Assembly (NCBI GenBank): GCA_951828235.1
Contig: OX639965.1
Coordinates: forward strand, 1,668,212 to 1,732,211
From: an uncultured Gammaproteobacteria bacterium
GTDB taxonomy: Bacteria; Pseudomonadota; Gammaproteobacteria; Steroidobacterales; Foliamicaceae
Reading direction: 5' to 3'
Length of the DNA stretch: 64,000 nt
The notes below the pieces were generated by a model. It did not search any database. It saw only the letters and a list, made by a program, of their open reading frames with translations, and was not told where the DNA came from. Each line of letters opens with the position of its first letter. Positions within the stretch are counted from its first letter, which is position 1. The translations under genes and the position numbers were made by a program. Of this stretch, positions 19,758 to 44,093 are shown piece after piece.

Positions 19758-19832
19758 GCGCTGTTGTCGCGCTCCCGTCCCTTCGGAGCCACTTCGCGAC
19801 GCTCCTGCCGCGAAGGGGCACGACAACAGCGC
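19758..19832 (+). repeat. REP-like nested hairpin, copy 1 (between convergent glnS and rpoD).
   Basis: Core CCTTCGGAGCCACTTCGCGACGCTCCTGCC, flanked by complementary arms GCGCTGTTGTCG / CGACAACAGCGC. Confidence 0.85.
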
Positions 19833-19903
19833 CCAACCGGTCGCGAGGCCGTGTGTTGCGGGGGTAAGCCCCGGTGTTCGGGGGGTAGCCCCTTCTCGGG
19901 GGC

Positions 19904-21844
19904 TTACTCTTCCTGGGTGAAGCTGCGCAGGCGCTCGGCGTGCGAGGGATGGCGCAGCTTGCGCAGCGCCTTGGCTTCGATCTGGCGGATGCGCTCGCGG
20001 GTGACGTCGAACTGCTTGCCGACCTCCTCCAGCGTGTGATCGGTGTTCATGTCGATCCCGAAGCGCATGCGCAGCACCTTGGCCTCGCGGGCGCCCAGCG
20101 TAGCAAGCACGTCGCGCATCGTCTCCTCCAGCCCGCGCGTGGTCGCCACGTCCATCGGTGAAGTGGCGTTCTGGTCCTCGATGAAGTCGCCCAGGTGCGA
20201 ATCCTCGTCCTCGCTTAGCGGCGTTTCCAGCGAAATCGGCTGCTTGGCGATCTTCTGAACCTTGCGGACCTTTTCCTCGGGCATCTCCATGCGCTGCGCC
20301 AGTTCCTCCGGCGTGGGGTCGCGTCCCATTTCCTGCTGCATCTGCCGGGAAATGCGGTTCAGCTTGTTGATCGTCTCGATCATGTGAACCGGCACGCGGA
20401 TCGTGCGCGCCTGGTCGGCGATCGAACGGGTGATGGCCTGGCGGATCCACCAGGTGGCGTAGGTCGAGAATTTGTATCCGCGCCGGTACTCGAACTTGTC
20501 CACCGCCTTCATCAGCCCGATGTTGCCTTCCTGGATCAGGTCGTTGAACTGCAGTCCGCGATTGGTGTATTTCTTGGCGATGGAAATGACCAGGCGCAGA
20601 TTGGCCTCGACCATTTCCTTTTTCGCGTCCTTGGCTTTCAGTTCGTTGTGGGATATCTCGCGGTACAGCTCCTTGATGCCGCGCGCCATGGGCTTGCCGT
20701 CCTTGCCCCTGGGAATGGCCTTGAAGCGGTTGATCGGCAGGCAGCACTTGTTCTCGACCCTGCGTAGGCGGCGGGTAAGCTGCCGCGCTTCCTCGGCATG
20801 GGGCGCCAGTTTCGATCCGTACTCCTCGCTGGCCAGTTGTTCCTCCAGCCATTCGTCGTTGCTTGGATCGGATGCGAAATATTCCTTGAAGCTGCCCAGC
20901 TTGATCCCCGCGCTGCGCACGTATATCCGGCGAAGCCGCTTTTCGCATCCCGATACCGACGAGGGATACAGCGCGTCCTGATCGTCGGAAGGGGCGCGCA
21001 TGGTGGCGTGCAGCGCGTCGAGCATGCCGTCGAAGGCGCGCGGCGTGAATTTCAGCTCCAGCAACATCCGGCTCATGACCTTCTGCGTGTGCTTGAGGTT
21101 GCGGCAGGACAGCGCGAAATGTTCCGGTGCTTCGCCGTTCTGGGCCTTGAGCTCCTGCGCTCGAACCCTCTTGAGGGCGCGATGCACCCGGGCGCACTGA
21201 TCCGTCAAAGCGAGCAAGCGCCGTTCCAGTTCCACGGGATCGGGCGGCTGTTTGCGCGCGGCGTTGTCGGCCGGGTCGCGTTCGGCGGCGGGCCGCAAGT
21301 CTTCAGGTTCGTCCGGATCGACGATCTTGGCTACCAGGTCGGTCAGCTTCATCCGGCCGGCCCGGTAATCCTCGAAGCGGTCAACCAGGTGCTGTACTGA
21401 CGGCAGGTAATAGGCCATAAGACGCTGGATTTCGCTGCGGCTCTGCTCGATGCGCCGCGCGATGCTGATTTCCCCTTCGCGGGTGAGCAATTCGACCGAA
21501 CCCATCTCGCGCATGTAAAGCCGCACGGGATCGGTGGTGCGGCCCAGTTCGACTTCGAACGCGCTGATGGCGTCATCGGCCTCTTCCACGTCGTCGTTGG
21601 TGGATTCGCCTTCGGTCAGGGCCAGGGTGTCCGCATCGGGAACCTCGTCCTCCTCGTACACCTTGATGTCCATGTCGCGGAGCACGTTGATGATTTCCTC
21701 GATCTGCTCCATCTCGACGATCTCGTCGGGGAGCTGGTCGGTCAGCTCGGTGTGCGTGATGTACGAGCGTTGCCGCCCTAGTGAAATGAGCTTCTTGAGC
21801 CAGTTTCTCTGTCGTGAGCGCTGTGTAGTGGTTCCAACGGTCAT
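19904..21844 (-). CDS. rpoD: RNA polymerase primary sigma factor sigma-70.
   Basis: [14 protein letters not shown] (region 2), [28 protein letters not shown] (region 4), acidic N-terminal region. Confidence 0.95.
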
Positions 21845-21886
21845 GCGGGGTGGCTGCCTCCGGGAGGTTTAACCGAACAATTATCG

Positions 21887-21894
21887 CTTATTTT
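21887..21894. repeat. Target-site duplication, left copy (CTTATTTT).
   Basis: An identical 8-mer directly abuts the outside of both inverted repeats. Confidence 0.85.
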
Positions 21895-21919
21895 GGGGAT
21901 TATATACCTAACTTGACAA
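21895..21919. repeat. Inverted repeat (rpoD-proximal end).
   Basis: GGGGATTATATACCTAACTTGACAA. Confidence 0.95.
21899..21904 (-). promoter_or_regulatory. Outward-facing consensus -10 hexamer (TATAAT) inside the IR, pointing toward rpoD.
   Basis: The minus strand reads TATAAT, ending 4 nt from the element tip. No good -35 sits at 17-bp spacing (TGCACC). Confidence 0.3.
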
Positions 21920-21933
21920 CAGGTGCACAAAGA

Positions 21934-21959
21934 GCAGCGCCCCTCGAAAGGGGCGCTGC
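21934..21959 (-). terminator. GC-rich hairpin, probable terminator of the minus-strand cargo operon.
   Basis: GCAGCGCCCCT-CGAA-AGGGGCGCTGC. On the minus strand it is followed by TCTTTGTG. Confidence 0.5.
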
Positions 21960-21990
21960 AATAGTATCCTAGAGTAAAGACCGCAACACG

Positions 21991-22134
21991 CTACATTACG
22001 AACCCAAGGAATGCGAAAATGAACGCTGCCAGGAACATGAGGAAAGCCACGACTTTACGGTCTTCATAATGCAGTCCCATAGTCAGAACCAAGAGTGCGC
22101 ACAGCCCCAGCCCAAGAGCGATATTCAACAACAT
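21991..22134 (-). CDS. 47-aa two-helix membrane peptide (hypothetical).
   Basis: Hand translation is MLLNIALGLGLCALLVLTMGLHYEDRKVVAFLMFLAAFIFAFLGFVM. It starts 2 nt after the upstream stop and is below the ORF-track size cutoff. Confidence 0.4.
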   Translation of the reverse strand: MLLNIALGLGLCALLVLTMGLHYEDRKVVAFLMFLAAFIFAFLGFVM

Positions 22135-22136
22135 TG

Positions 22137-23021
22137 TTAGTCGCGCTGGCGCCTTTCCCACTCCCTGAACTGTTCCAGGAATCGATCGAGCCGCCCCAGC
22201 GTATGATCCGCCGTATCCTCCTGGCTCAATGCATCTGCTTCTTCGCGGGCCAACGCGACCAGCACATCGATAATCTGCTGCCTCTCAGCGTCACTTAATG
22301 CATTCCATTCTTCTTCGGTCAGGCTGTCCAGATCGGCCAGTATCTCGACAACGGTTCTTGAGCTACTCCCAGAGGATGATCCGCCGGGCGCTTCTGTTCG
22401 GTTGCTAGGCCCGGTCGTTCGTGGATTTTTGCTCAAGCAATCCAAATACGCACCAGCGGCTGTGCCTGTAACTGCGCCTTGCAAGATTGCACTGCAAGGA
22501 TCGCGTAGCGCGTAAATTACATCGTTTTCGTTGATGTAAACATATATGTCCAAGGGATCCCTTCGGGTCGTCGCCTGGATTCCCCAATACGTTCCAATGG
22601 CGGTTGCCGCGGCGTGTATGGCGCCAACAGATTCCCTCAAGAACCATCCTGCCAAAGCTATAGATACTGTGTTTTCCGCAGTGGACATTGTGTAGGAAAG
22701 AGTCACCATTCTTCGCATGTCGTCAGTGACCATGTAACAACGTCCATCGGCAACGTAGTAGTCATATTCTTCCCGAACGATGAGTTCCCATTCATCTTCG
22801 TAATGTTCACGCCCGCGCCATGAAGACCCGTCTCTTGCATCGGCCCAACATTCACTCGGGGTGTCGTAGCCGTAAACATTTGTGGTGGCCCGCGCTGAAA
22901 ATACGCCCACAAGGAAATACAGTGCCATGACCAGCAATAGAAATATGCCGATACGTTCCCCTGTTTTTGACAGCGCCCATTGATGATAAGTCCGCCAAGC
23001 ATTACGAATCTTGTTTGTCAT
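22137..23021 (-). CDS. Hypothetical 294-aa protein with an N-terminal membrane anchor and an acidic coiled-coil C-terminus.
   Basis: ATG at 23021 (MTNKIRN) is preceded by AAGGAG. The longer track ORF (to 23255) runs through the tRNA gene and is rejected. I recognise no domain. Confidence 0.6.
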   Translation of the reverse strand: MTNKIRNAWRTYHQWALSKTGERIGIFLLLVMALYFLVGVFSARATTNVYGYDTPSECWADARDGSSWRGREHYEDEWELIVREEYDYYVADGRCYMVTDDMRRMVTLSYTMSTAENTVSIALAGWFLRESVGAIHAAATAIGTYWGIQATTRRDPLDIYVYINENDVIYALRDPCSAILQGAVTGTAAGAYLDCLSKNPRTTGPSNRTEAPGGSSSGSSSRTVVEILADLDSLTEEEWNALSDAERQQIIDVLVALAREEADALSQEDTADHTLGRLDRFLEQFREWERRQRD

Positions 23022-23162
23022 TTCCAAATTCTCCTTACAATGAGGAATGTGCCCCGCTGGTGAATCATGCTCTCCGTGCGCAATTTGATAGTAGCACAGT
23101 TCAATTGACAAGATAACGCGCGTTATCAGGTATACTTGATATCGCCAATGCCCAAAAGGAGA

Positions 23163-23261
23163 CGGAGGCGGCGGGATTCGAACCCACGGTAGGTATTTTG
23201 CTTTACGGGCACCTACACCGGTTTTTAAGACCGGCGCATTAAGCCACTCTGCCACGCCTCC
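23163..23261 (-). tRNA. 99-nt class II tRNA with anticodon UAA (Leu by anticodon) but Ser-like architecture, G73 discriminator and an about 30-nt variable region.
   Basis: Hand-folded cloverleaf: GGAGGCG / TG / GCA-GAGTGGCTTAA-TGC / G / CCGGT-CTTAAAA-ACCGG / TGTAGGTGCCCGTAAAGCAAAATACCTACC / GTGGG-TTCGAAT-CCCGC / CGCCTCC / G. No encoded CCA. Confidence 0.75.
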
Positions 23262-23289
23262 GCAGAGCGGTTGCGGAGCATAGCATCTT

Positions 23290-23323
23290 GGGGCGAGAGG
23301 GTTGATCCTTCTCGCCCCTTTTT
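23290..23323 (+). terminator. Intrinsic-terminator-like hairpin plus T-run, with no obvious upstream plus-strand gene.
   Basis: GGGGCGAGA-(11 nt)-TCTCGCCCC-TTTTT. Confidence 0.45.
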
Positions 23324-23665
23324 ACTATGTGATATATTTTCCCACGAGAAATTCGCTGGTATCCCCTATGTCGGGTTGCCCGCTGAATACAACAGCCGTT
23401 TGCAGCCTGGAGTAGCTATCCGGACTTGGTAAACAAGCGGGATTTTCGCTACCAGTGAATTTCTCAAAGGCCCGGCGCTTTGCCAGGCCAAAACAAGCGA
23501 GCCTCCAACGAGGATAAGTCGTCGGAGGCTCTTACCGCGCAGAGAGTTGAATACCACACAGCGCGGCAGCGGCATTGTAGCCTCTGCAACGAGCAGGCTT
23601 TCTCTCTGCGCCTCAGCCGACCCCGCTTTCCAAGGCGGGGTCGGTTCCAATAAGAGGAAGAGAGC

Positions 23666-24169
23666 ATGTTTGAGAAGAAAGCAGATCCTGGCGGGGCTAT
23701 TTTCGTCGGGATACTTCTAATCGTTGTCGTTCCACTTCTGACAGGGATGTGTTCTGTTGCTTATCCACAAGAAAGCAACAGAATCCTGACTAAAGAGCAG
23801 TCACCCGCCGTGCAAGCAATTAACACGGCGCTAGAGAACGTGGACGCCGCAATTGTGGAAGCAACGGTAACGCGAGACTATTTTGTTGCGCAACTTGCCG
23901 CACCTACATTCAACACAGCGAAGATAGAAGAGAAAAGCCACGCGCATATGGCAAAAATTACGGCAGCGGACGAAAAATGGCGTATTGCTTCCGAGTTGCT
24001 TCAAGAGACGGCAGAAAACGCGCCTCATGCCTTCAAGAGTATTGAACAATTATGGGCGACACGTGATCGCCTGCAAGCCGCGCGCGACCGTATTACGGCA
24101 TTGGGAGAAGATGCGCTAAAAGCACTGGACCGAAGCGCGTCCCGTTTACAGAGACAGTTGGAACGATGA
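23666..24169 (+). CDS. Hypothetical membrane-anchored coiled-coil protein (167 aa).
   Basis: N-terminal TM segment (AIFVGILLIVVVPLLTG). ATGA overlap with the downstream nuclease gene. AGAGGAAGAGAG RBS region. Confidence 0.55.
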   Translation: MFEKKADPGGAIFVGILLIVVVPLLTGMCSVAYPQESNRILTKEQSPAVQAINTALENVDAAIVEATVTRDYFVAQLAAPTFNTAKIEEKSHAHMAKITAADEKWRIASELLQETAENAPHAFKSIEQLWATRDRLQAARDRITALGEDALKALDRSASRLQRQLER

Positions 24170-24810
24170 AGAAAACCACTCCTGTTCTCTTCGCATTACT
24201 GGCCTACGCCTGTCTTGCCACGGGCGAAGATGCACACGCCCAGCTCGCAACAGCAGCCACCGTAACCGGCGCCTATGATGGAGACACGATTTACGTTACC
24301 GCGGCTGTTTGGCCCAACATGCTTTGGGCTGGCAGTGTTCGCGTTCTCGGCGTAGACACACCGGAGATTCAGGGGCGCTGCGTACAGGAAAGCACGCTGG
24401 CGCTTGAGGCACGGGATTACGTTCGGGATCTGTTGACTGACGAGAGTGTTCTTTTGACGGATGTGAAGAACGACAAATATGGCGGGCGTGTCCTGGCGCA
24501 TGTCTTTTTACAAGCGGAAGACAACCAGCAGAATCTTGCTGCTCTACTTATCGAGCGAGGCTTGGGGCGTGATTATGATGGCGGCACTCGGCAAAGCTGG
24601 TGTGGAGATGAGCAGGAATTGCCCGAACAGGCGGCACCAGTTGATGCCGATGTGAACCTGGACGATCCTCTTGCACTATATGACGATAACAATAACGGCA
24701 GGATTACTTGTGCTGAAGCAAGAAAGCACGGGATTGCGCCCGTGAAAAGCGACCATCCTGCTTACCGCTATATGAACGATAGAGACAGGGATGGGGTGGT
24801 TTGCGAGTAA
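24166..24810 (+). CDS. Secreted thermonuclease (SNase-like) with a C-terminal Excalibur calcium-binding domain.
   Basis: Signal peptide, DGDTIYV, LGVDTPE, KYGGRVLAHVF, and a C-terminal DDNNNGRITCAEA...DRDRDGVVCE. Confidence 0.8.
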   Translation: MKKTTPVLFALLAYACLATGEDAHAQLATAATVTGAYDGDTIYVTAAVWPNMLWAGSVRVLGVDTPEIQGRCVQESTLALEARDYVRDLLTDESVLLTDVKNDKYGGRVLAHVFLQAEDNQQNLAALLIERGLGRDYDGGTRQSWCGDEQELPEQAAPVDADVNLDDPLALYDDNNNGRITCAEARKHGIAPVKSDHPAYRYMNDRDRDGVVCE

Positions 24811-24860
24811 TTATCAAGATAACCAAGATAATCTTGTGATACACTCCTTTCCAAGGAGAG

Positions 24861-24933
24861 TGGCCCCGGAGAGAATCGAACTCTCACCTTCCCGTTCGGC
24901 AAACAGGGGCTCTATCCGTTGAGCTACGGGGCC
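24861..24933 (-). tRNA. tRNA-Gly (anticodon GCC), 73 nt, no encoded CCA.
   Basis: Hand fold: GGCCCCG / TA / GCTC-AACGGATA-GAGC / C / CCTGT-TTGCCGA-ACGGG / AAGGT / GAGAG-TTCGATT-CTCTC / CGGGGCC / A. Confidence 0.85.
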
Positions 24934-25085
24934 ACTTCTTCATTCTACTGTTAATGAATGCACGTAACTACGTGCGGCGCTTAATTCGTTGCGCATGAAA
25001 TTTGCGCAAAGAATTACAACAGAATATGTTGTATCATATATTCAACAGTTTTAACTGTAATCATCATCAATATCTGGAGATAACT

Positions 25086-25337
25086 ATGAGCACCAAATCC
25101 AAGCTCAATGGCAGCGTTGATTTGTTGGCTAAAGCAATGCGTCAGGTGTTCACAGAGGCCGTAGAAGAAGGTCTTGTTCCAGTGCGAGAGGACATCAAGG
25201 ACATTCGTGGCGACATCAAGAAACTGAGCGACGGTCTGGACACGACAAACCAGAACATGCAGGCGCAATTCGCGCAACATCGCAAGGACGTGTCGGCAGA
25301 TGTGCGCCAAGCTTTACGGCGTCAGCCTAGCCGTTAG
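25086..25337 (+). CDS. Hypothetical 83-aa helical protein.
   Basis: ATG at 25086 (MSTKSKLNGSVDLL...) with GGAG 6 nt upstream of the ATG. Convergent 4-nt overlap with the transposase stop. Confidence 0.4.
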   Translation: MSTKSKLNGSVDLLAKAMRQVFTEAVEEGLVPVREDIKDIRGDIKKLSDGLDTTNQNMQAQFAQHRKDVSADVRQALRRQPSR

Positions 25338-26287
25338 GCGATCAAGTCCCGGTACATCAGCCGCTTTCCAACTAGGCCAGCGATTACGTTCCGCATCATC
25401 GCGGCGGTATCGCACTCGCGGAGATTGTGACGGCCTGCGAACTCTGTGACGTAACGTTGCAGGTGCTTCCGACTCATCTTGTGGAACGTGCCGGTGTGAG
25501 CACGTTTGAGCATTGACCAAAAGGACTCTACGCCGTTGGTGTGAATCTGCCCATCAACGTATTGTCCGGCGCCATGCTTGACAGCACTATGATTCGCCAG
25601 TCCTCTATAGGCACGCGCTTCGTCGGTAAAGATTGGAGCGCCAGGAGCCGCTGATGCACTTACGAAGCCGTGCAATGTGGGTTTGTCTGTCTTCTCCACT
25701 ACACGAGCCTGAACACGATTACTCTGACGATCCTTTGCGCCGACTACGGCTGTCTTGCCCACGGTGCCGCGACCTGCTTTCAGGCGGTCCTTGACATGTT
25801 TGTTCTTCTCTTTGCCACCCACATAGGTTTCGTCTACTTCCACCGGACCGATAAACTTTTCAATGCCTGATGTGTCCCAAGCCTCGCGTAATCTGTGGAG
25901 CAGGAACCACGCCGTCTTTTGCGTCACTTTCAGATCCCGATGCAGCTTCATGCTGGACACGCCCTTCAAGCTGGTTACATAGAGATAGGTTGCGACCGCC
26001 CACTTGCGCAGTGGCAGGCGGGAACTCTGCAAGGTTGTGCCGGTGCGGACGCTGAAATACTGGCGGCAGTCCGTGCACCAATAGGGCATCGGCTTGCGGT
26101 TCGGGACTTCCTTTGTCGCAGTGCTTCCACAGTGACCGCAGCATCGACCCTCCGGCCATTGTACGGATTCGAACCACTGGACAGCCGTATCTTCGTCGGG
26201 AAACATCTCCATTAGCCTGATGAGCGAGATGCCTTTACGATCTGATTTTCCGGGAGATTTGTGCTTGGACATAATGTATTCCTCCAT
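25334..26287 (-). CDS. IS1595-family DDE transposase (ISXO2-like domain) with an N-terminal zinc ribbon.
   Basis: CCGHCGS...YWCTDCRQYFSVRTGT, VEVDETYVGG, FTDEARAY, HTNGVESFWSMLKR. Alternative start at 26272 (MSKHK). Confidence 0.9.
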   Translation of the reverse strand: MEEYIMSKHKSPGKSDRKGISLIRLMEMFPDEDTAVQWFESVQWPEGRCCGHCGSTATKEVPNRKPMPYWCTDCRQYFSVRTGTTLQSSRLPLRKWAVATYLYVTSLKGVSSMKLHRDLKVTQKTAWFLLHRLREAWDTSGIEKFIGPVEVDETYVGGKEKNKHVKDRLKAGRGTVGKTAVVGAKDRQSNRVQARVVEKTDKPTLHGFVSASAAPGAPIFTDEARAYRGLANHSAVKHGAGQYVDGQIHTNGVESFWSMLKRAHTGTFHKMSRKHLQRYVTEFAGRHNLRECDTAAMMRNVIAGLVGKRLMYRDLIA

Positions 26288-26315
26288 ACGCGTATTTTCT
26301 CAGATTATGCTGGCT

Positions 26316-26340
26316 TTGTCAAGTTAGGTATATAATCCCC
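26316..26340. repeat. Inverted repeat (transposase-proximal end).
   Basis: TTGTCAAGTTAGGTATATAATCCCC is the exact reverse complement of 21895-21919. Confidence 0.95.
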
Positions 26341-28568: not shown

Positions 28569-28618
28569 GCCCCTGCCAAAACTTCACGCTTTGAAGGCCG
28601 GCATTCTGCGAATCCTTC

Positions 28619-28684
28619 GCGCGGTGTCGTTTCCCTTCGGAGCCACTTCGCGACGCTCCTGCCGGGAAAAGTGCGCCACCGCGC
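28619..28684 (+). repeat. REP-like nested hairpin, copy 2 (between rpsU and dnaG).
   Basis: GCGCGGTGTCGTTTCCCTTCGGAGCCACTTCGCGACGCTCCTGCCGGGAAAAGTGCGCCACCGCGC. Confidence 0.85.
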
Positions 28685-28735
28685 TCCAACTGGCGCGCGG
28701 CCTTCGTACGAAATTCGGTTTGTGGGGGGAGGGGG

Positions 28736-33220: not shown

Positions 33221-33364
33221 ATGATGATCCGCACGCAAATTTCTTTGGACGCTGAATTGCACACGCGGCTTCGTGCACGTGCAGCGGCGGATCAATCCAC
33301 GGCCCAGGCGACCGTTCAGGTATACCCCGCCTCCAGGCAAAGGCCGTCGATGGCGATGTTGTAG
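33221..33364 (+). pseudogene. 5' fragment of an RHH-type antitoxin gene. It loses similarity where the HNH gene's 3' end begins.
   Basis: Hand translation is MMIRTQISLDAELHTRLRARAAA..., followed by unrelated residues overlapping 33316-33364. Confidence 0.3.
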
Positions 33365-34974
33365 TCCATGCGCTCGCCGCCCCAGCCGCAGCGGGCGGTG
33401 TGGGTGTCGATAGCCAGGCCGTGCGACGCGTTGAACGCCGCCAGCCGCTCCGCGCCGTCCACCGCGGAGGCGCTTCCTGACTCTGCGCAGGTGCTTCCGG
33501 GCTTTGCGCAGATGTTTCCGCGGAAACATTCCCCGTGCGGCCTGCCCGCCGGCGGGATCACGCGGCCATCCGGGCGCGTGAACTGGATCTCGCCCTCGTT
33601 CACGCGAACGCCATAGCCCCCTTCGTGCACCTGGCGGTGATGCTGAGAACATAGCGTGACCAGGTTATCCAGCCGGGTCTCGCCGCCATCCGCCCAATGC
33701 TTGATGTGATGGGCGTGTACATAGCGGGAACGGTCGCAGCCCGGAAAGCGGCAGCCGCCGTCACGCACGCGCAGCGCGCGCCGGATCGCTGGCGGCACCG
33801 CCCGGGTCCGGCGCCCAATGGCCAGCGGCTCGCCCTTCGCGCCTTCCACCACACCGACCAAAGACCCGTCACAGCCCAGACGCCGCGCCGTCTCCACCGC
33901 CAGCGGCCCGCCGTGTTCGAACGACGCGCCGCTGCTCTCCGGCACGTCACGCAGCGCGTCGTGGGCGATATGCACCACCACCTCGTGGGCGCCGTTGGCC
34001 GACCCCGAGCACTTCCCGGCAAGAAACCTCCGGACAATGTATTCCAAGGCGTCCGCCCGCCGCTGACTCACGCTACGTCGGGGTGTTTCCGCGGAAACAC
34101 TGTCAGGCCGCGTATCCCAAAACGGCGGCAGCGCGGGTCTCATCCGGGATGTTTCCGCGGAAACATCTGCGGGAACCGCATCCGCATCAGCCGCATCAGC
34201 CGCATCCGCATCAGCCGCGACCGCCCCGGCACTCTCCGCATCCCCGACCCGCTCCTCCAACTGCGCGTGGGCCGCTTCCAGCGCCTTAAGCAGCATCTCC
34301 CCCACCTCGGGCGCCAGGCGTGCCTCCAGCCTGACGCTGCCGTCGCTTTCACGCCAGCACTCCAGGTAGCGCCGCTCGTGCATGGCCTCGGCCTCGTCAC
34401 GCTCGAGATAGCGCACGGCCCGCCGGAACCCCCGCACGGTGCGTTCCACATGCGCGGCCGTGCCGTTCAGGGCGATGTTCAGCAAGGTGTCTTCCGTCGC
34501 CGCCGTCGCCACCCGCGTCAGCGCGCGCACTTTCGAATACGACAGGCGGCCCTCGCCGAAGGCGCCCGCGATCTTCGGCAGCGATTCCAGGGCTCGGGCT
34601 ACCCGCACCTTTTCTCTCGCCGCCACCGGGCCGATGCCGCATTGCCAGCTCAGCCAGTGGGCGCAACTCGCTATGCCGTGCTGGGCCCAGCCCTCCCTGC
34701 GGTCGAACTCCGCCAGCAGGGCGAGAAAATGCGCGGTGGCCGCGTTGATGTGTCCCCACAACTGGGTGATCTCCGCCTCCAGTGCTTCGAGCGCTTCCTC
34801 TTCGCGCTGCCGCTCGGCCATGCGCACCTCGGCGTCCGGGTGGGGATACCGTGCTTTCCCAGCAGAGGGAGGCTCGACGGCGGCAGCGGGGGGAAGCTCT
34901 ACCGAGCCGGCAACAGCCGCCGGAATCTCAGCGTCGCGATCAGGGGCGGCGGAAGCAGTGCGGTGAAGGTCCAT
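33316..34974 (-). CDS. DUF222-domain HNH endonuclease (13E12-repeat-like family).
   Basis: CRFPGCDRSRYVHAHHIKHWADGGETRLDNLVTLCSQHHRQVHEG, plus the upstream ETARRLGCDGSLVGVV motif. Confidence 0.85.
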   Translation of the reverse strand: MDLHRTASAAPDRDAEIPAAVAGSVELPPAAAVEPPSAGKARYPHPDAEVRMAERQREEEALEALEAEITQLWGHINAATAHFLALLAEFDRREGWAQHGIASCAHWLSWQCGIGPVAAREKVRVARALESLPKIAGAFGEGRLSYSKVRALTRVATAATEDTLLNIALNGTAAHVERTVRGFRRAVRYLERDEAEAMHERRYLECWRESDGSVRLEARLAPEVGEMLLKALEAAHAQLEERVGDAESAGAVAADADAADAADADAVPADVSAETSRMRPALPPFWDTRPDSVSAETPRRSVSQRRADALEYIVRRFLAGKCSGSANGAHEVVVHIAHDALRDVPESSGASFEHGGPLAVETARRLGCDGSLVGVVEGAKGEPLAIGRRTRAVPPAIRRALRVRDGGCRFPGCDRSRYVHAHHIKHWADGGETRLDNLVTLCSQHHRQVHEGGYGVRVNEGEIQFTRPDGRVIPPAGRPHGECFRGNICAKPGSTCAESGSASAVDGAERLAAFNASHGLAIDTHTARCGWGGERMDYNIAIDGLCLEAGYT

Positions 34975-36781: not shown

Positions 36782-37582
36782 TCAAGCCTTCTTGAGCGTG
36801 TCCTCGTAGTTGGCGCGGCCCTGCATGCGTGCCTGGATGAGGTCGAGGCCGGCGTGTACCTGGTCGTAGAAACCCACGGCCAGCAATTCACGGCGCAGTT
36901 GCTCGTTGATTCCGGCGCGGGTTGCATGTTCGGCAACCAGTTCGGCGAACCCCTCGCCCGAGGGCTGGGTGGATTTTTCCGCGATGGCGCGAAACAGCGA
37001 GCCGGTGTAAGTGTCCGCCTGAGCGGCCTCGACGCCCTGGGCGCGCAACCAGGCCGAGACGGATTCCAGCAGCTCGAAGTAGGGGGCCATCAGCGCGGAG
37101 ACGGAAAAGAAGGCATCGAGTTGCGCTTCATCGCTGACCTGGATCACGGTGCCGATCGGGTCGAAAAATTTCGCCAGTTGGTCATTCGGCGGACACATCG
37201 CGATGGGGCCCTTGCGCTGCGCCGCCGGGGGGACGGGCGCAACCCTTCCGGCAAGCAATGCAGGCCGGACGCGCCGCCGGATTTCCGCCGAACCCAGCGT
37301 CGCGATGAAGCTCACGACCCGTTGCTCCGGGCGGAACTTCAGCGCTGCAAGCACGGCTTCGGCAACCTGCGGCCGCACGGCAAGGATGACCATTTCCGAG
37401 CGGTCCACCACCTGCTGGTTGTCGGCGGCCACCTCGACCGCGGCATAGCGTTCGCTCAGGTTCCGCGACCGTTCGCGGTTCCTTGGCGAGAGCAGAATCG
37501 ACAGCGCGGACGCCCTGGCCTCGCACAGGCCGGTCACCACCGCCTCGGTAATGGCGCCGGCGCCGATGAATCCAACGTCCAT
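36782..37582 (-). CDS. Pyrroline-5-carboxylate reductase-like NADP oxidoreductase.
   Basis: MDVGFIGAGAITEAV Rossmann start, about 266 aa. The start at 37582 is preferred over the track start. Confidence 0.7.
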   Translation of the reverse strand: MDVGFIGAGAITEAVVTGLCEARASALSILLSPRNRERSRNLSERYAAVEVAADNQQVVDRSEMVILAVRPQVAEAVLAALKFRPEQRVVSFIATLGSAEIRRRVRPALLAGRVAPVPPAAQRKGPIAMCPPNDQLAKFFDPIGTVIQVSDEAQLDAFFSVSALMAPYFELLESVSAWLRAQGVEAAQADTYTGSLFRAIAEKSTQPSGEGFAELVAEHATRAGINEQLRRELLAVGFYDQVHAGLDLIQARMQGRANYEDTLKKA

Positions 37583-37586
37583 TGGC

Positions 37587-38744
37587 CTACTCCGAATCCC
37601 GCTCGAGCAGCAGCCGCTCCATGATCCGCGCGTAGACGCGGCGCAGGCCCTCGACATCGCTGGCCCGGACGCGCTCGTTGACCTGGTGGATGGTGCGGTT
37701 GATCACGCCGAATTCCACCACGTCGGCGCCGTGCAGCGCGATGAAGCGCCCGTCGGAGGTGCCGCCGCCGGTGGACAGCTCCGGGTCGATCCCGCACTCA
37801 TCGCGCACTGTTTCCCGGGCCGTTTCGACCAGCGGGCCGTGGGCGGTCATGAAGGGCTCGCCGGCGGGGAACCATTTGATCTCGTAGTCAATTTCGTGGC
37901 GGCTGAGGAGGTTCTCGACCCATTCCTTGATCTGGTCGCTCCGCCACTCGGTGTTGAAGCGGAAGTTAAAGCGTGTAACCAGTTCGCCGGGAAACACGTT
38001 GGTCGCGCCGGCGTCGGCATGAACCCGCACGACCTGGAAGCCGGTGGGAGGAAAATTGTCGTTGCCCTGATCGAGCGGCGTGGCGTACAGGTCCGCGAGC
38101 ACCGGCGCGAAACTCTGTATCGGGTTTTGCGCCAGCGCGGGGTAGGCAACGTGGCCCTGTTCGCCACGCACGGTCATGATGGCGCTGAGCGAGCCGCGCC
38201 GGCCGACCCGCAGGGTGTCGCCGAGCTGCTCCGAGCAGGAAGGCTCGCCCACCACGCACCAGTCGATCATTTCGTCGCGGGCGCTGAGCGTGTCCATGAC
38301 CCTGCGGGTGCCGTCGGTTGCCGGTCCTTCCTCGTCGCTGGTGATGAGGAAGGCCACCGAGCCGCGGTGATCGGGGTGGTCGTTAGCGAAATCGATACCG
38401 GCGCGGACCATGGCCGCGATGCCGGTTTTCATGTCCGCGGCGCCGCGCCCCTTGAGCCAGCCGTCGCTCAGCTCCGGCTCGAAGGGATCGTGGTCCCAGT
38501 CCTTGCGCGGCCCAGGCGGCACCACATCGGTGTGGCCGGCAAAGCACAGCACCGGCGAGTCGCCGCCGTGCCGCGCCCAGAGGTTGGACACCTTGCCGAA
38601 GGGCATGTGCTCGACGCTGAAGCCGGCCTCTTCCAGCAGCCCGCCCAGGAGCTCCTGGCAACCGCCGTCGGCGGGCGTGACCGACCGCCGGCGCATCAGG
38701 TCCAGCGCCAGATCGAGTGTTTGTTGATCGCGGGCGTCATTCAT
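37587..38744 (-). CDS. dapE: Succinyl-diaminopimelate desuccinylase.
   Basis: M20 peptidase motifs ([14 protein letters not shown]). Adjacent to and overlapping dapD. Confidence 0.88.
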
Positions 38745-39549
38745 CGCGCAACAACTCGTTCAAAGACGTGCGCGTGCGGGTGCGCTCGTCCACCTGCTTG
38801 ACGATCACCGCGCAATAGAGCTGCGCGCGGCTCTTGCCGTCCGGCAGGCTGCCAGGCACCACCACCGAGCCGGCGGGGACCCGCCCGTACAGGACCTCGT
38901 CGCGGGCCCGGTCATAGATTCGCGTGCTCTGGCCGATGTAGACGCCCATCGCGATGACCGCGCCGCGCTCCACGATGACGCCCTCGACGATCTCGGAGCG
39001 GGCGCCGATGAAGCAATCGTCCTCGATGATGGTGGGCGTGGCCTGCAGGGGCTCCAGCACGCCGCCGATCCCGGCGCCCCCGGACAGGTGCACGTTCTTG
39101 CCGATCTGGGCACAGCTTCCCACCGTGGCCCAGGTGTCGATAAGCGTGCCGCTGTCCACGTAGGCGCCGATATTCACGTAGCTGGGCATGAGCACCACGC
39201 CCGGCGCGATGTAGGCGCCTCGCCGCACCAGCGCATCGGGCACCACGCGCACGCCGGACGAGGCGATGTCGCCGCTTGCGAATTTCAGAGGCACCTTGTC
39301 GAAAAAACGCGTGTGCCCCGCGGGAATCTCGCGGCTGGGCGTGATCGCGAAATAAAGGAGCACCGCCTTCTTGAGCCACTCATTGACCCGCCAGCCGTCG
39401 TCGGTCGGTTCGGCGACGCGGGCCTTGCCGCTGTCGAGCAGGCCGATGGCCTCGTCGATGGCCGCGCGCAGCCCGGCGGGCGCGCTGTCGGGCGCGAGTT
39501 CCGTACGCTGTTTGTACGCGGCTTCGATGATGTTGCGCAGCTCTTGCAC
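38737..39549 (-). CDS. dapD: Tetrahydrodipicolinate N-succinyltransferase.
   Basis: Hexapeptide-repeat region and typical N-terminal domain, 270 aa. Confidence 0.9.
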
Positions 39550-39627
39550 TTCAGGCTCTCGGGAGTGATTTCCGCCGCTTATCCCACGGCGCGCGCAATT
39601 ATCGCATCATGGCGATGCGGGCCCTTC

Positions 39628-39697
39628 GCGCGGTGTTGCACCCTTCCCTTCGTCGCCACTTCGCGACGCTCCTGCCGGGAAGGGTGCAACACCGCGC
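39628..39697 (+). repeat. REP-like nested hairpin, copy 3.
   Basis: GCGCGGTGTTGCACCCTTCCCTTCGTCGCCACTTCGCGACGCTCCTGCCGGGAAGGGTGCAACACCGCGC. Confidence 0.85.
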
Positions 39698-39732
39698 TCC
39701 AGCATGCGCGCAAGAAACGCCCGAGAGCCCAG

Positions 39733-40749
39733 TCAGGTGGAGAGGTTCTGAATGAAGCGGCGCGTGCAGCGCTTCCAGCTGAATTGTTCGGCATAGCGCC
39801 GACAGTCCTCGCGATCGAGTTCGAGCGCCGACTGAATGGCGCCGGCCAGGTCCTCGTTCATCGCCGCAACCCGTCGATCGCGCAAAACATCAAGCGGCCC
39901 CGGAACCGGATACGCCGCCACCGGGGTCCCACAGGCCAGCGCTTCCAGCATGACGAGGCCGAAGGTGTCGGTGCGGCTTGGAAAGACGAATACGTCGGCG
40001 GCTCCGTAATGGGCAGCCAGTTCCTCGCCGAACCTGGCGCCGGTGAACAGCGTGTCCGGGTAATGCGCCGTGTAATTGTCGAGCGCCGGGCCATCGCCGA
40101 CGACCACCTTGCTGCCGGTAAGGTCCAGCCCGAGGAAATCCGGCAGGCCCTTCTCCACGGAAACCCGCCCGACGTACATCTGTATCGGCCGGGGAAGGTC
40201 CTGCAGACACGCGGGTACCGGCAGGCCGGGCCGGAACAACTCCGCGTCCACTCCCCGCATCCAGGGTCGCGTGTTCGGGAGTCCTCGTTGCTGGAGCTCC
40301 CGGCGCAGAGTGGGCGTGGCCACCATCACGCCGCGCGCCGGGCGATGGAACCAGCGCATGGCCTTCCATCCCCAGCTCACCGGCAGCCGGCAGCGGGCGT
40401 GCAGGTACTCGGGATAGCGGGTGTGCAGGGACGTGGTAAAGCCGCGCTTTCTTCGCAGGCACCAGCGGCGTGCCGCCAGGCCCAGCGGCCCTTCGGTGGC
40501 GATATGGATAACGGCGGGGTCCAGTGCGTCCAGGCGCCGGCCCAGCGCCCACCAGGCGTTTGCCGCCAATCGGATTTCCGGGTAGCCGGGGCAGGGCAGG
40601 GTCCGAAACTGGCCGGGGTGAATGACGTGCATTTTCAGGCCAAGGCATTCGGATTCCCGGAGGACCGTTTCCAGGGTGCGGACCACGCCGTTCACCTGCG
40701 GTTTCCATGCGTCGGTGACGCAGGCGACGGTCAGTCGGCCTTCGATCAC
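39733..40749 (-). CDS. Family 4 (GT-B) glycosyltransferase.
   Basis: VFVFPSRTDTFGLVMLEALACGTPV and an N-terminal KPQVNGVV. A GTG start at 40749 gives a GTGA overlap with the upstream stop. Confidence 0.8.
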   Translation of the reverse strand: MIEGRLTVACVTDAWKPQVNGVVRTLETVLRESECLGLKMHVIHPGQFRTLPCPGYPEIRLAANAWWALGRRLDALDPAVIHIATEGPLGLAARRWCLRRKRGFTTSLHTRYPEYLHARCRLPVSWGWKAMRWFHRPARGVMVATPTLRRELQQRGLPNTRPWMRGVDAELFRPGLPVPACLQDLPRPIQMYVGRVSVEKGLPDFLGLDLTGSKVVVGDGPALDNYTAHYPDTLFTGARFGEELAAHYGAADVFVFPSRTDTFGLVMLEALACGTPVAAYPVPGPLDVLRDRRVAAMNEDLAGAIQSALELDREDCRRYAEQFSWKRCTRRFIQNLST

Positions 40750-41612
40750 GCGGCTTTTCTGAATTCTGTCGGTCCGGGGCATTCGTCGGTCCAATCCTTG
40801 CCATCGATCAACTTGAGTTCGCCGGCGTGAGTCTCGCAAAGGGCGCTCAAGCTTTCGACCCAATCGCCGTCATTGCAATACAGCACACCGTCGATCATGC
40901 GCATTTCGGGTCGGTGTGTGTGACCGCAGATCACGCCCTTCAGCTTGCGTCTGCGCGCTTCCGCCGCCAGCCTTTCCGGGTAGCTGCGCGCGCCCGACAC
41001 TACCCGCTTGATCCAGCGCTTCAGCCAGGCGGACAGCGAGCGCTCGCGCAACCCTGCAAGTCTCATCAGTTTCATTATGACCACGCTCAAGCGCAGCAGC
41101 CATTCGTAGAGCAGACCTCCAAGAGAACTCAGCCAGGGGGTGTGCTTCTGCACCGGGTCGTACTCGTCGCCATGGCAAACTAGCATGCGGCGGCCGTCAC
41201 GGCAGCGGTAGATGTGCTCACGGCGGATCTCCACGCCCCTGATTCGGAGGCCGCCCAGGCATCGGAAAGCTTCGTCGTGGTTTCCGGGAATAAAGATCAC
41301 GCGCGTCCCGTTGCGGGCCATCGCGAAGAGTTTTCGGACGACCTGCGAGTGGTTGCGGGGCCAATACCATTTGCGCCGCAGGGCCCACACGTCGATGATG
41401 TCGCCGACCAGGTAGAGCGTTTCGCATTCCAGCCGGCCCAGGAATGCGCGCAACTCGTTGGCCTTGCATCCCCGGGAACCGATATGGGTGTCGGAGAGGA
41501 ATACCGTCCGGCAGCGGATTTCGGCGCGCGTGTCGGTGACCTTCGTTTCGGCGCCGTCCCTGTAGACGGGGAACGGCAGGGCGGTTGGGCCTCCGCCCAA
41601 AGAGTTGATCAA
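40746..41612 (-). CDS. Metallophosphoesterase, UDP-2,3-diacylglucosamine hydrolase (LpxH)-like.
   Basis: FLSDTHIG, LVGDIID, IPGNHDE, CHGD. Confidence 0.75.
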   Translation of the reverse strand: MINSLGGGPTALPFPVYRDGAETKVTDTRAEIRCRTVFLSDTHIGSRGCKANELRAFLGRLECETLYLVGDIIDVWALRRKWYWPRNHSQVVRKLFAMARNGTRVIFIPGNHDEAFRCLGGLRIRGVEIRREHIYRCRDGRRMLVCHGDEYDPVQKHTPWLSSLGGLLYEWLLRLSVVIMKLMRLAGLRERSLSAWLKRWIKRVVSGARSYPERLAAEARRRKLKGVICGHTHRPEMRMIDGVLYCNDGDWVESLSALCETHAGELKLIDGKDWTDECPGPTEFRKAA

Positions 41613-41732
41613 GTAACAGCTCCCCCGGTATCCACGCCCGGATATCGTGATCCCGCAACCTTTCCTCGCGATTACAACTACTTGACGGTTTCGCGACGCA
41701 ATTGCTTCAATTTCGTGAATGGAGACTCTTCG

Positions 41733-42335
41733 TCAGGAGGAGTGCAGGGTCCGGGCGAGGGTTGCGAGGCGGCGGCCGAGGGCTTCCGCCAGGGTTTTCT
41801 CGTCCGCCGTGAGGCCGTCGTCGCTGGTTCGCTCGACATGCGACGCGCCGTACGGCGAGCCGCCGGACATCGTCTTGCGCAATTCGGGCACGGTGTAGGG
41901 GATTCCGGCGATCAGCATTCCGTGGTGCATCAGGGGCACTGCCAGCGACAGCAGCGTGGCCTCCTGTCCGCCGTGCATGCTGTTCGACGACGTGAATACG
42001 GCGGCGGGCTTGTCCACCAGCAGGCCGGAGACCCATTCCGCCGCCAGGCCGTCGAGAAAATGCTGAATGGGCGCGCTGGGGGCGCCGAAGCGGGTGGGAC
42101 TGCCCAGCGCCAGGCCGGCGCAATCCCTGAGGTCGTCCTTGCTGACGTACGGGGCGCCGCTTTCGGGCACGGCGGGCAGGGCTTCGCCGGATTGTGCGGC
42201 GACCGGGGGCGTGGCCCGCAGCACGGCTTCGCAGCCTGCGATCATTTCTATGCCTCTGCCGATGGCCCTTGCCAGGGCCTCGGTGGCGCCCTTCACCGAG
42301 TAATACACCACCAGGATTTTGCGTTCGCTGCTCAA
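41733..42335 (-). CDS. wrbA: NAD(P)H:quinone oxidoreductase, WrbA-type flavodoxin-like protein.
   Basis: ILVVYYSVKGATEALA start, about 200 aa. Confidence 0.8.
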   Translation of the reverse strand: MSSERKILVVYYSVKGATEALARAIGRGIEMIAGCEAVLRATPPVAAQSGEALPAVPESGAPYVSKDDLRDCAGLALGSPTRFGAPSAPIQHFLDGLAAEWVSGLLVDKPAAVFTSSNSMHGGQEATLLSLAVPLMHHGMLIAGIPYTVPELRKTMSGGSPYGASHVERTSDDGLTADEKTLAEALGRRLATLARTLHSS

Positions 42336-42345
42336 TGCATGGGCG

Positions 42346-43662
42346 TCAGACGACGATGACGGGGTCGGTGAGGGTGTGGATGGGTTCGGCGCCGTGAGCG
42401 GTAATCAGGCTTAAGTCCTCCATGTGCGCGGAGCCGCCGATGCCCGTGTTCATCACGGGGCAATCCACGCTGATGATCATGCCGGGCTGAAGCCTGAGGT
42501 CCTCCTTCACCCAGTAGGGACGCCCGTCCTGACCGGGCTCGTCGGTGTGCGTAAGGCCCACGCTGTGCGGCGCGAACGGAATGTCGAAGTCCAGGCCCGA
42601 GTCCCGCACCGCCTTCTGGCCGATCGGGGGGATTTCCGAATAGCGCAGCCCGGGCCGCAGTTTCTCGCGTATCGCCTCCCAGCCGATATGCATCGCCCGG
42701 GTCGCATCGCGCATGGCGTTCGCCGGTTCGCCGACGAAGATGGTGCGCGCGAAGTCCCCGTGGTAATGCCAGCCGTGGCTGACGCAGTCGATGAAGAAGG
42801 CCGACCCCTCGCCGAACTCGAAGTCGACGACTTCGGAGATCATGCGATCGATCGACATGAAGACGCCTGCGTTGCCGCGGCTGGCGGCCTCTGAGAAGAA
42901 CGACGCCCGCAACTCCTGGGTGGTGGCGCCTTCGCGCGCCGTGCCGGCGGCGGCCAGGGCGGCGTCGGCGTTGGCCTGCGAGGCCAGGCGCATCAGTTCG
43001 ATCTCGCGTGGTGACTTGACCAGTCTTATCTTGCGCAGGGTGTTGTCGCCCGCCACCGCCGTGGCCTTGAGAGGCGAGTATTCGAGCATTGCCATGATCG
43101 CCATGTGGTCGACGCCGACACGGCCTTTGTCCATGTCCAGGGCGCGCGCAGCCTTCACCATCGCCCATTCGCGCTCGGCGCTGAGGCCGTTGCGCGCGGC
43201 GGCTGCCTGCACTGCGGCCCGCCGGTGGGTTTCGACCGCGTCCACCGGGGCTTCGCCCTTGTCGCGGTAGATGCGGAGCTCGCCGGCGCCGGGTTCCTCG
43301 ACATCGCCCAGAACGGCAGTCGCGGTTACCGCGCGGTGAGTGTATACGTAGGGTTCCACGCCGCCGTCAAAGTGGGAGTCGGCGTATACGAGGTAGTAGA
43401 GAAACTGCGGGATGACCAGCGCCACCGGCTTTTTCGGATCGGCGGAGAGCAAGGCCAGGGTGGGTGCGGGGAAACCCATTTTTCCGAGTTGCGGCCAGTA
43501 CCCGGTCAGGTGAAAGACGTTGACCGGCTCGGCCACGATCAGTCCGGACAGCGATTCCTGCTGCAAGACCTTCTCGGCCCGTTCGCGATTAAAGAGCGGC
43601 CCTCCCCTGAGCAGCGAACCGCCTGCGGCGAACGTCTCCCGGAACGACTCGTGAGGGTGCAT
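42346..43662 (-). CDS. M24-family metallopeptidase (Xaa-Pro aminopeptidase / creatinase-like).
   Basis: Creatinase-type N-terminal domain plus a pita-bread C-terminal domain (HSVGLTHTDEP, MIISVDCP). Confidence 0.75.
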   Translation of the reverse strand: MHPHESFRETFAAGGSLLRGGPLFNRERAEKVLQQESLSGLIVAEPVNVFHLTGYWPQLGKMGFPAPTLALLSADPKKPVALVIPQFLYYLVYADSHFDGGVEPYVYTHRAVTATAVLGDVEEPGAGELRIYRDKGEAPVDAVETHRRAAVQAAAARNGLSAEREWAMVKAARALDMDKGRVGVDHMAIMAMLEYSPLKATAVAGDNTLRKIRLVKSPREIELMRLASQANADAALAAAGTAREGATTQELRASFFSEAASRGNAGVFMSIDRMISEVVDFEFGEGSAFFIDCVSHGWHYHGDFARTIFVGEPANAMRDATRAMHIGWEAIREKLRPGLRYSEIPPIGQKAVRDSGLDFDIPFAPHSVGLTHTDEPGQDGRPYWVKEDLRLQPGMIISVDCPVMNTGIGGSAHMEDLSLITAHGAEPIHTLTDPVIVV

Positions 43663-43716
43663 GGTCGATTGATTCTAACGCGCCGCCGCAAATGACCGAC
43701 CGGGTAAAATGACCCC

Positions 43717-44001
43717 ATGTCCGCAGAGGTCTGCCGCCGCTACATCGTTTCGGGACGCGTGCAGGGCGTGTTCTTTCGCGCCAGCACCGCCAGCGTTGCA
43801 CACCGCCTCGGACTGCGCGGGCGCGCCAGGAATTTGCCCGACGGCAACGTGATGGTCCTGGCCGTGGGGCCCGAATCGGCAGTGGACGAACTGGGCGAGT
43901 GGCTGCGCCATGGACCGTCGTCCGCCCAGGTAGCCGATGTTCAGCAGGCCGATGAGCAGGTGGACGAGTGGCAGCACCTGCCCGACTTCAGAACGCACTG
44001 A
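43717..44001 (+). CDS. acyP: Acylphosphatase.
   Basis: VSGRVQGVFFRAST...GRARNLPDGNVMVL. Confidence 0.85.
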   Translation: MSAEVCRRYIVSGRVQGVFFRASTASVAHRLGLRGRARNLPDGNVMVLAVGPESAVDELGEWLRHGPSSAQVADVQQADEQVDEWQHLPDFRTH

Positions 44002-44023
44002 CGCCCACTGACGAGGCCCTGAC

Positions 44024-44093
44024 GCCCACTAAAGCGCGTCGCCGCACCCTTCCCGGCAGGAGCGTCGCGAAGTGGCTCCGAAGGAAAAGGTGC
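44024..44093 (-). repeat. REP-like nested hairpin, copy 4 (inverted relative to copies 1-3).
   Basis: GCGCGTCGCCGCACCCTTCCCGGCAGGAGCGTCGCGAAGTGGCTCCGAAGGAAAAGGTGCGGCGACGCGC. Confidence 0.85.

Follow-up and report, generated by a model that had tools for sequence, protein, structure and literature searches.

Extragenic palindromes take several forms in bacterial genomes. The classical repetitive extragenic palindromic (REP) sequences and bacterial interspersed mosaic elements (BIMEs) of enterobacteria lie for the most part beyond gene 3' ends, alternate in orientation and are joined by linkers, and the REP unit, some 35 nt long, has a GTAG/CTAC head, a stem that is conserved and a loop that varies. 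Both have been implicated in mRNA 3'-end protection, termination and protein binding (some Escherichia coli BIMEs bind gyrase or IHF), and they are hot spots for insertion and rearrangement. The attC sites of integrons are hairpin-forming imperfect palindromes recognized as folded single strands beside variable gene cassettes; their base boxes (RYYYAAC/GTTRRRY) and extrahelical bases are conserved, and their tip is variable. REPINs, in turn, are REP doublets that form hairpins and are mobilized by RAYT transposases in Pseudomonas fluorescens and other bacteria (PMC3337134, PMC3116915). A REPIN spans about 89 bp and folds into a hairpin whose ends are conserved and whose middle is different in every copy yet still pairs (PMC3337134), and REPIN-RAYT systems are reported to be inherited vertically over long periods (bioRxiv 10.1101/2022.05.22.493013). 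Here we analyze a hairpin family with four copies in a 64,000-nt stretch of an uncultured gammaproteobacterium (contig OX639965.1, positions 1,668,212 to 1,732,211; hereafter, the window). The family is an undescribed low-copy relative of the REP/REPIN class in which, as opposed to the usual pattern, the tip is frozen and the arms drift while remaining matched.

The anatomy of the element was taken from an alignment of 34 copies of its main type, in which it is about 90 bp long (88-93 bp in the window). Past a 5' flank of yCCTTCG, a 21-bp outer stem begins with GCGCG, runs through a hypervariable middle and closes with CCyTTCCy, its freely varying positions being 6-10, 13, 16 and 21. An asymmetric (3x4) internal loop, with 3 nt on the 5' side and an invariant TGCC on the 3' side, leads to a 5-bp inner helix (GGAGC/GCTCC) around the 11-nt loop CACTTCGCGAC, and a 3' flank of CTyyAGynGGyG closes the element. 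The base of the hairpin is thus GCGCG/CGCGC, flanked by CCTTCG and CTYYAG. An initial annotation of the window had placed the element correctly and drawn it too short, for the flanks CCTTCGCGCG and CGCGCTYYAG are present in three of the four window copies and the wider conservation of the flanks is visible in the 34-copy alignment. It had also counted the inner helix as part of an invariant core. What is unchanged throughout the main type is the asymmetric apical 22-mer GCCACTTCGCGACGCTCCTGCC; the inner helix is dispensable, being broken by a GGAG-to-GTCG change in the third window copy and in several non-orthologous copies. Two more hairpin types share with the main type only the 13-nt loop CCACTTCGCGACG, sometimes with a 1-nt indel, and all the pairing around this loop differs in them, including a compensated GGAAC/GTTCC inner helix.

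An unfiltered scan of the whole window with a covariance model trained on 33 copies, from which copy 2 was excluded, returned exactly four copies, at 62-102 bits, followed by generic hairpins at 19 bits or less. The same four are recovered by the 37-nt core at 19780-19816 (+), 28634-28670 (+), 39647-39683 (+) and 44048-44084 (-), with 1, 2, 2 and 0 mismatches, respectively, against an expectation of 0 in shuffled sequence, and all four carry the exact 21-mer CCACTTCGCGACGCTCCTGCC. No other hairpin in the native part of the window is as long; they lie where they had been annotated, and all of them are indeed intergenic, at gene ends.

Copy 1 (19752-19844, + strand; apical 22-mer at 19788-19809, +) is a variant with longer and shifted arms, the hairpin proper covering 19758-19832. 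It occupies the gap between the convergent 3' ends of a glnS-like tRNA-synthetase gene (stop at 19732) and rpoD (stop at 19904), folds at -49.8 kcal/mol (z -4.6), scores 62 bits and has orthologs in the relatives L003, L013, L015 and L018 (L-numbers denote the DNA stretches of relatives compared with the window). Copy 2 (28611-28698, +; 22-mer at 28642-28663, +), between the rpsU stop (about 28736, - strand) and the start of dnaG, is decaying, its 5' arm having lost 4 nt and acquired mismatches. Its fold is weak (z -1.7), it still scores 81 bits despite having been left out of training, and its ortholog in L003 is intact. Copy 3 (39620-39711, +; 22-mer at 39655-39676, +) has a perfect 21-bp stem (39628-39648 with 39677-39697) and bears the aforementioned GGAG-to-GTCG variant, which yields the CGTCGC-CACTTC-GCGACG arrangement already reported for it. 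Its neighbors, both on the - strand, are a GT4 glycosyltransferase gene (stop at 39733) and dapD (start at 39549); it folds at -55.9 kcal/mol (z -8.2), scores 98 bits and has orthologs in L001, L005, L006, L014, L016, L017, L038, L043 and L052. Copy 4 (44020-44111, -; 22-mer at 44055-44076, -) starts immediately past the stop codon of proS (44110-44112), and an acylphosphatase gene stops 33 nt away (44001), the element again lying between convergent 3' ends; it folds at -56.6 kcal/mol (z -4.9), scores 102 bits and has orthologs in L006 and L052. The arms quoted in the initial annotation for copies 1, 3 and 4 are correct to the letter and complementary, and the reverse strands of these three copies fold as well as the forward ones (-50 to -57 kcal/mol); the claim that every copy keeps self-complementary arms needs correcting for copy 2.

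The family is restricted to Candidatus Foliamicus-type gammaproteobacterial metagenome-assembled genomes (MAGs) and a few metagenome assemblies. An exact scan for the 21-mer over one genome per species (185,579 species) found it in 26 DNA stretches, all of which, save for one chance match, belong to MAGs of Ca. Foliamicus or of unclassified Gammaproteobacteria. Ca. Foliamicus is placed in the order Ca. Foliamicales, and the lineage is sponge-associated. In metagenomes, true members appeared in few assemblies, and the remaining matches were coding, unrelated and without a hairpin. Copy numbers, counted here as exact cores, with diverged copies included only at the loci compared, are low throughout. 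In the closest relative, whose complete chromosome (OY762933.1, 2.95 Mb) is 94-97% identical to the window, there are eight exact cores, five of them inside 22 kb in a region syntenic with the window, and the other complete genomes hold 1-4 (5 counting one near-exact core). Searches of Rfam returned two tRNA matches and none for the element at the gathering threshold, and at a permissive threshold only generic long-hairpin (miRNA precursor) noise far under the cut-offs. The element was likewise without a match in viral contigs, phage records and plasmid records, as were its core sequence and the genus name in the literature searched.

Across relatives, copies occupy nine independent sites, and the same intergenic spots are filled in species whose flanking genes are 76-97% identical. 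Four of the sites are those of the window: glnS-like/rpoD (convergent, copy 1), rpsU-dnaG (co-directional, copy 2), wrbA-like gene-dapD (co-directional, copy 3, with the GT4 gene replacing the wrbA-like gene as neighbor in the window) and acylphosphatase gene/proS (convergent, copy 4). A fifth, between an M24 peptidase gene and a wrbA-like gene, has lost its copy in the window. The others are the amiC 3' end (co-directional with mraZ in L008, convergent in L022 and L023), abhydrolase gene/ispA (convergent), grpE-dnaK (co-directional) and the gap between an ABC transporter gene and an MFS transporter gene (divergent, L010 only). Eight of the nine are therefore gene 3' ends or co-directional gaps. 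A presumed divergent nadK/dnaK site was rejected as an artefact of crude gene calling, grpE being present there. The element begins 0-12 nt past the upstream stop codon at proS, the abhydrolase gene, grpE and amiC, to the point that the grpE stop codon falls inside the flank motif, and the other window copies lie 22-38 nt from theirs. Promoter-like matches are found downstream of the element at dnaG (sigma-70-like, 28579-28551, between copy 2 and dnaG) and at dnaK. At the latter, TTGAAT-N14-CCTCATAT (GTTGAAT-N14-CCTCATAT in full) stands between the hairpin and the start codon in L011 (5880-5960), L012 (-) and L024, a conserved match to a sigma-32-type heat-shock promoter. Orientation relative to transcription varies from site to site, and at grpE-dnaK the tip is inverted in L011 and L024 with respect to L012 and L047, with identical arms and position.

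Arms and tip differ sharply in their conservation. When the structure was imposed on the 34 copies, standard pairs filled 94.8% of the cells, against 83% after shuffling of the 3' letters and 43-52% when partners were slid by 1-3 columns. Changes on both sides were seen in 13 of the 21 outer stem pairs, and the covariation score (0.321 versus 0.111) was reached by none of 500 shuffles; related sequences may beat shuffles without any structure, a caveat that affects the slid controls and the double-sided pairs less. The compensatory change proposed in the initial annotation hence exceeds chance by far. Among the 31 in-register copies, 16 have perfect stems and the mismatches of the rest comprise about 7 G.U, 10 A.C and 9 others, with no preference for G.U on either strand. 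Between distant species, in which 4-fold sites of the flanking genes differ by 0.33-0.45 and the intergenic flanks can no longer be aligned, two to four of the six most variable arm positions differ. The arms thus diverge about as much as 4-fold sites and are still paired, whereas a 25-nt core shows no differences in any species comparison, except for a GA-to-TC change in window copy 3. Such a lack of change against 4-fold divergence of this order indicates that the tip is under strong purifying selection at each site, in line with the invariant center that had been put forward.

Selection on the fold had been taken as the cause of compensatory change, and it need not be the only one. Template switching at quasipalindromes is known to produce multi-base changes that perfect imperfect inverted repeats (PMC7202029). 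In our family, the GA-to-TC change turns the 5' side of the loop into the exact complement of GCGACG (CGTCGC/GCGACG), and it occurs in window copy 3, at the copy 3, M24-wrbA and copy 4 sites of L052, and only at the M24-wrbA site of L006. The right flank of L012 has come to complement the left one exactly (GGCTAGAGCGCG...CGCGCTCTAGCC), and copy 1 differs from its orthologs by a symmetric 3-bp insertion, TCG in one arm and CGA in the other. The covariation is real, and in each of these multi-base changes one half of the palindrome has been copied into its counterpart. Considered along with how far the arms have diverged, they suggest that templated arm-to-arm copying contributes to covariation besides selection for the hairpin, the relative weight of the two being a matter of inference.

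Taken together, position, structure and conservation lead us to read the family, tentatively, as a REP/REPIN-like, orientation-independent gene-boundary hairpin whose tip would be read by a putative sequence-specific factor. Copies that directly follow the stops of conserved housekeeping genes and precede the next promoter, in both orientations, make service at gene boundaries the most likely job of the hairpin. Each copy would fold into a very stable hairpin on either strand that may form or protect transcript 3' ends and insulate neighboring transcription units in either orientation. The asymmetric apical 22-25 nt (GCCACTTCGCGACGCTCCTGCC and its neighbors) would most likely serve to dock a putative protein specific to the lineage, perhaps an HUH enzyme akin to RAYTs or some other protein that binds hairpins. 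Provided that both arms match, the middle of the stem would be free to change, and this matching would probably be maintained both by the copying of one arm into the other, through fold-back/template-switch correction or arm-to-arm conversion, and by selection for the hairpin itself.

Several observations weigh against such a role. A plain hairpin function leaves the invariance of the 22-25 tip nucleotides unexplained. The element is not a canonical intrinsic terminator, since it lacks a T-run: a terminator scan calls none of the four copies, whose tails read CCCAAC, TCCAAC, TCCAGC and TTTAGT. Nor is it a general terminator, for only 4 of roughly 50 intergenic gaps in the window carry it; canonical hairpin-plus-T-run terminators themselves are not enriched in the window (21 versus 18.3 expected, and 11 versus 14.0). 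The L010 copy lies between divergent gene starts, the copy number is far below the hundreds per genome typical of REPINs, and neither tblastn with E. coli RayT nor a motif scan found a RAYT in 326 kb of family-bearing DNA, a weak test that covers about 1% of the genomes. The RAYT-type recognition contemplated in the initial annotation has therefore found no candidate enzyme in that DNA.

The hairpins are also hot spots for rearrangement, insertions and deletions, as attested by chimeric copies, by the recombined tips and islands of relatives and by a 2-kb segment in the window. In relatives, the main type usually stands tail-to-tail with a partner hairpin, as seen at the copy 1, copy 2, copy 3 and amiC sites, and the window copies are singletons. 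At copy 3, the partner present in L006, L038, L043 and L052 has been lost in the window, leaving an outer-arm remnant (AAACGCCCGAGAGCC, 39715-39729, +), and a 2-kb GT4/phosphoesterase segment has taken its place. This segment (39714-41732) is absent from all relatives, including the near-identical strain L043, in which the partner hairpin is found instead. It encodes a GT4 glycosyltransferase (39733-40863) and a metallophosphoesterase (40746-41612), both on the - strand, and this content discards it as a transposase carrier. Recombination as a cassette was also discarded, for a second occurrence of the loop 10-mer TTCGCGACGC at 41690-41699, close to the distal end of the segment, has no surrounding hairpin and is within chance (0.59 expected in total). 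The fifth family copy was lost at the deletion junction 42333-42346: about 125 bp of intergenic sequence retained at the M24-wrbA site of L006, L016 and L052 are missing there, including the family copy and the original ATG of the wrbA-like gene, which in the window apparently starts at a TTG 10 bp past the upstream stop codon.

Chimeric, tandem and truncated half-copies are found in L007, L015 and L018. At the M24-wrbA site of L001 (4083-4149), outer arms of the L016 type surround a different GC-rich palindrome (GAGGGCGTCCCGCCCTC...) in place of the CCACTTCGCGACG tip, which suggests that one hairpin tip can take the place of another. Next to the copy 2 ortholog of L026 lies a lower-GC defence island of 6.7 kb (474-7195) that truncates an inverted partner hairpin at ...GCCAAGTGAAGCGCGCTCCG|TTATAG; it encodes a MazE-like antitoxin, an N6/N4 DNA methylase, a PLD-family nuclease and a ResIII helicase-endonuclease. 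A further class of partner, with very stable folds of -67 to -77 kcal/mol (L020 5423-5544, L022 7203-7324 and L013 622-747), combines flanks resembling those of the main type (CCCTCGC...GCTTTAGT) with an unrelated and longer tip, and its L013 copy includes GCTCCTGCC, the 3' part of the invariant core.

This mosaic of hairpin types around a common 13-nt loop, with tandem, truncated and chimeric copies, doublets in relatives and variable presence at the M24/wrbA site, is what might be expected of purely selfish, non-autonomous mobile DNA of the miniature inverted-repeat transposable element (MITE) or REPIN kind, with the tip as a transposase recognition site and no role for the host. Long vertical inheritance is no obstacle to such a view, for it has been documented in REPIN-RAYT systems (bioRxiv 10.1101/2022.05.22.493013). 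Nonetheless, we deem it unlikely. The same sites are occupied across species 0.33-0.45 apart at 4-fold sites with no changes in the tip, and immobile, functionless copies should have decayed over such distances. No direct repeat of 2-9 nt exceeds a permuted control at the tested boundaries of 29 copies, as a target-site duplication would; no transposase adjoins any copy examined, and no RAYT/IS200-like gene lies near them. The closest complete chromosome holds only some eight exact copies, and the one presence/absence difference of the window is a deletion, not an empty target site.

It is also conceivable, although quite unlikely in our view, that the element acts as double-stranded or extruded DNA and not as RNA, being a site for a nucleoid, topoisomerase, replication or recombination protein at gene boundaries. 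The pairing carries no wobble signature tied to one strand, and the arms of most copies are perfect by Watson-Crick rules; the element, moreover, is oriented independently of transcription, with a tip open to inversion. Structural change has occurred at several copies (the loss of the partner at copy 3, the L026 island and the 42333-42346 deletion), and the gyrase- or IHF-binding BIMEs of E. coli offer a parallel. On the other hand, this explanation comes without a candidate protein, the tight adjacency to stop codons fits a transcript-level role more simply, and the copies are few and clustered (five of eight within 22 kb), with no obvious chromosome-scale pattern.

A regulatory role for the tip itself seems improbable. 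Under such a scheme the tip would be a signal of its own, be it the dock of a regulator or a -24/-12-type promoter, borne by the hairpin and invertible, and it would define a regulon rather than a REP-like repeat. The boundaries of growth and cell-division operons at which copies are found (rpsU-dnaG-rpoD, grpE-dnaK, amiC-mraZ, dapD, ispA, glnS and proS) would then delineate that regulon, which we regard as equally doubtful. Least probable of all is a strand-specific functional RNA (cis-regulatory or small RNA) or promoter, to which the strong covariation, the conserved loop and the resemblance of the reverse tip strand, (C/T)GGCAGGAGCGTCGC, to a sigma-54 -24/-12 element might point, with the main type usually antisense at co-directional sites, so that the sigma-54-like string faces the downstream gene (dnaG, dapD, wrbA, mraZ, dnaK in L011 and L024, and the ABC transporter gene in L010), and with the GG-N10-GC spacing retained in the partner (B) type. 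However, in four cases (copy 1, copy 4, the abhydrolase site and L012) a convergent gene lies ahead of the string, which is antisense to it, orientation flips at the orthologous grpE-dnaK site, the third hairpin type lacks the GG, the invariance reaches well past the -24/-12 element, Rfam gives no match and G.U pairs are not favored. The window copies, moreover, fit the sigma-54 consensus at only 7 of 11 specified positions, and a single such match is unsurprising after comparing the tip with many motifs. The RNA structure considered in the initial annotation is hence unlikely, at least in strand-specific form. Other candidates (small open reading frames across the element, a k-turn, a boxA/boxB analogy, CIRCE, LexA and DnaA boxes and, by inspection, a tRNA-like fold) found no consistent match to the element, and the window shows neither an excess nor a shortage of the TCGCGA loop palindrome (35 observed, 42 expected).

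The window contains other features of note. A lower-GC (50-56%) segment between rpoD and dnaG (21895-26340), missing in L003, L009 and L015, is an island unrelated to the element. It carries the only transposase gene of the window, of the IS1595 family (25334-26287, -), an SNase/Excalibur nuclease-like gene (24166-24810, +), a tRNA-Gly(GCC) gene (24860-24933, -) and good canonical terminators at 23290-23318 and 23531-23499; a 99-nt Rfam tRNA match at 23163-23261 (-; 59.5 bits) was not called by ARAGORN. A lower-GC restriction-modification island at 10700-14500 encodes an Eco57I/N6-type methylase (11456-13258) and a BsuBI/PstI-type endonuclease (13258-14343). A perfect 17-bp palindrome (GTCGATATTGTGCATTT/AAATGCACAATATCGAC) is found at 14452-14486, just past the end of a TonB-dependent receptor gene, and a hairpin at 11664-11719, inside the methylase reading frame, was examined as a family member and found to be unrelated. 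The perfect 16-bp palindrome TGTTTCCGCGGAAACA occurs twice, 50 nt apart (34084-34099 and 34150-34165), both times within the reading frame of a DUF222/HNH endonuclease (33316-34974, -). Its outer halves fit the parS consensus, TGTTNCACGTGAAACA, and its central four bases differ.

Bacterial palindromic repeats are usually described as abundant, conserved in the stem and variable in the loop. The present family follows the opposite pattern, with few copies long fixed at the boundaries of core housekeeping operons, a frozen tip and drifting, matched arms. If our reading holds, the family would provide a natural case for weighing templated arm copying against selection on the fold in the compensatory evolution of hairpins, with a bearing on the use of covariation as evidence for functional RNA structure. 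It would likewise invite the question of what sequence-specific factor recognizes a hairpin tip at the gene boundaries of an uncultured lineage of symbionts. More immediately, the element and its covariance model can be used as a marker for the Ca. Foliamicus-type lineage.

Comparison with known systems helps to situate the family. It shares with intrinsic terminators, including bidirectional ones, a GC-rich hairpin right after stop codons, often between convergent genes, that folds on both strands, and departs from them in the absence of a T-run (there is at most a one-sided TTTAG in some copies), in an overlong stem and in a tip that is invariant across species. With attC sites it has in common an imperfect palindrome whose structure is conserved above the sequence of its arms, and it differs in the lack of base boxes (its base is GCGCG/CGCGC), in its invariant tip, in its association with housekeeping genes instead of cassettes and in the fact that no integrase was seen. 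It departs from MITEs in showing no target-site duplication above the permuted control. Of the features of structured RNAs, covariation is present and a fixed strand is absent, as evidenced by the mixed orientations and the inverted grpE-dnaK tip. The template-switch hot spots of quasipalindromes (PMC7202029) are matched by the GA-to-TC tip change, the symmetrized flank of L012 and the 3-bp insertion of copy 1; they represent a mutational process, however, and not a class of element, and they account for the matching of the arms but not for the conservation of the tip.

The closest resemblance is to REP-derived elements. Like REPs and BIMEs, the family is extragenic, follows gene ends in either orientation and forms hot spots for rearrangement; in contrast with them, its units are about 90 nt long, lack a GTAG head and combine a variable stem with an invariant loop. 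With REPINs it shares a long extragenic hairpin (about 89-92 bp), conserved outer parts around a variable middle that keeps pairing, vertical persistence within a lineage and, in relatives, inverted doublets and more complex arrangements. REPINs, however, number in the hundreds per genome, against about eight exact cores in 2.95 Mb here; their ends are conserved short REP palindromes around a variable center, whereas here it is the tip that does not vary; and they are mobilized by RAYTs, whereas no RAYT gene was seen in the 326 kb searched and the copies are fixed at orthologous sites beside housekeeping genes. The REP-like label proposed initially is thus apt as regards extragenic location, inverted doublets in relatives and a propensity for indels, and inapt as regards copy number, the conserved tip and the missing GTAG head. 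Given this tip, a complement of under ten copies where tens to hundreds would be usual and the lack of a RAYT in what is a weak test, we set the family apart from REP and REPIN proper: it belongs to the REP/BIME/REPIN class by behavior, with an anatomy of its own.

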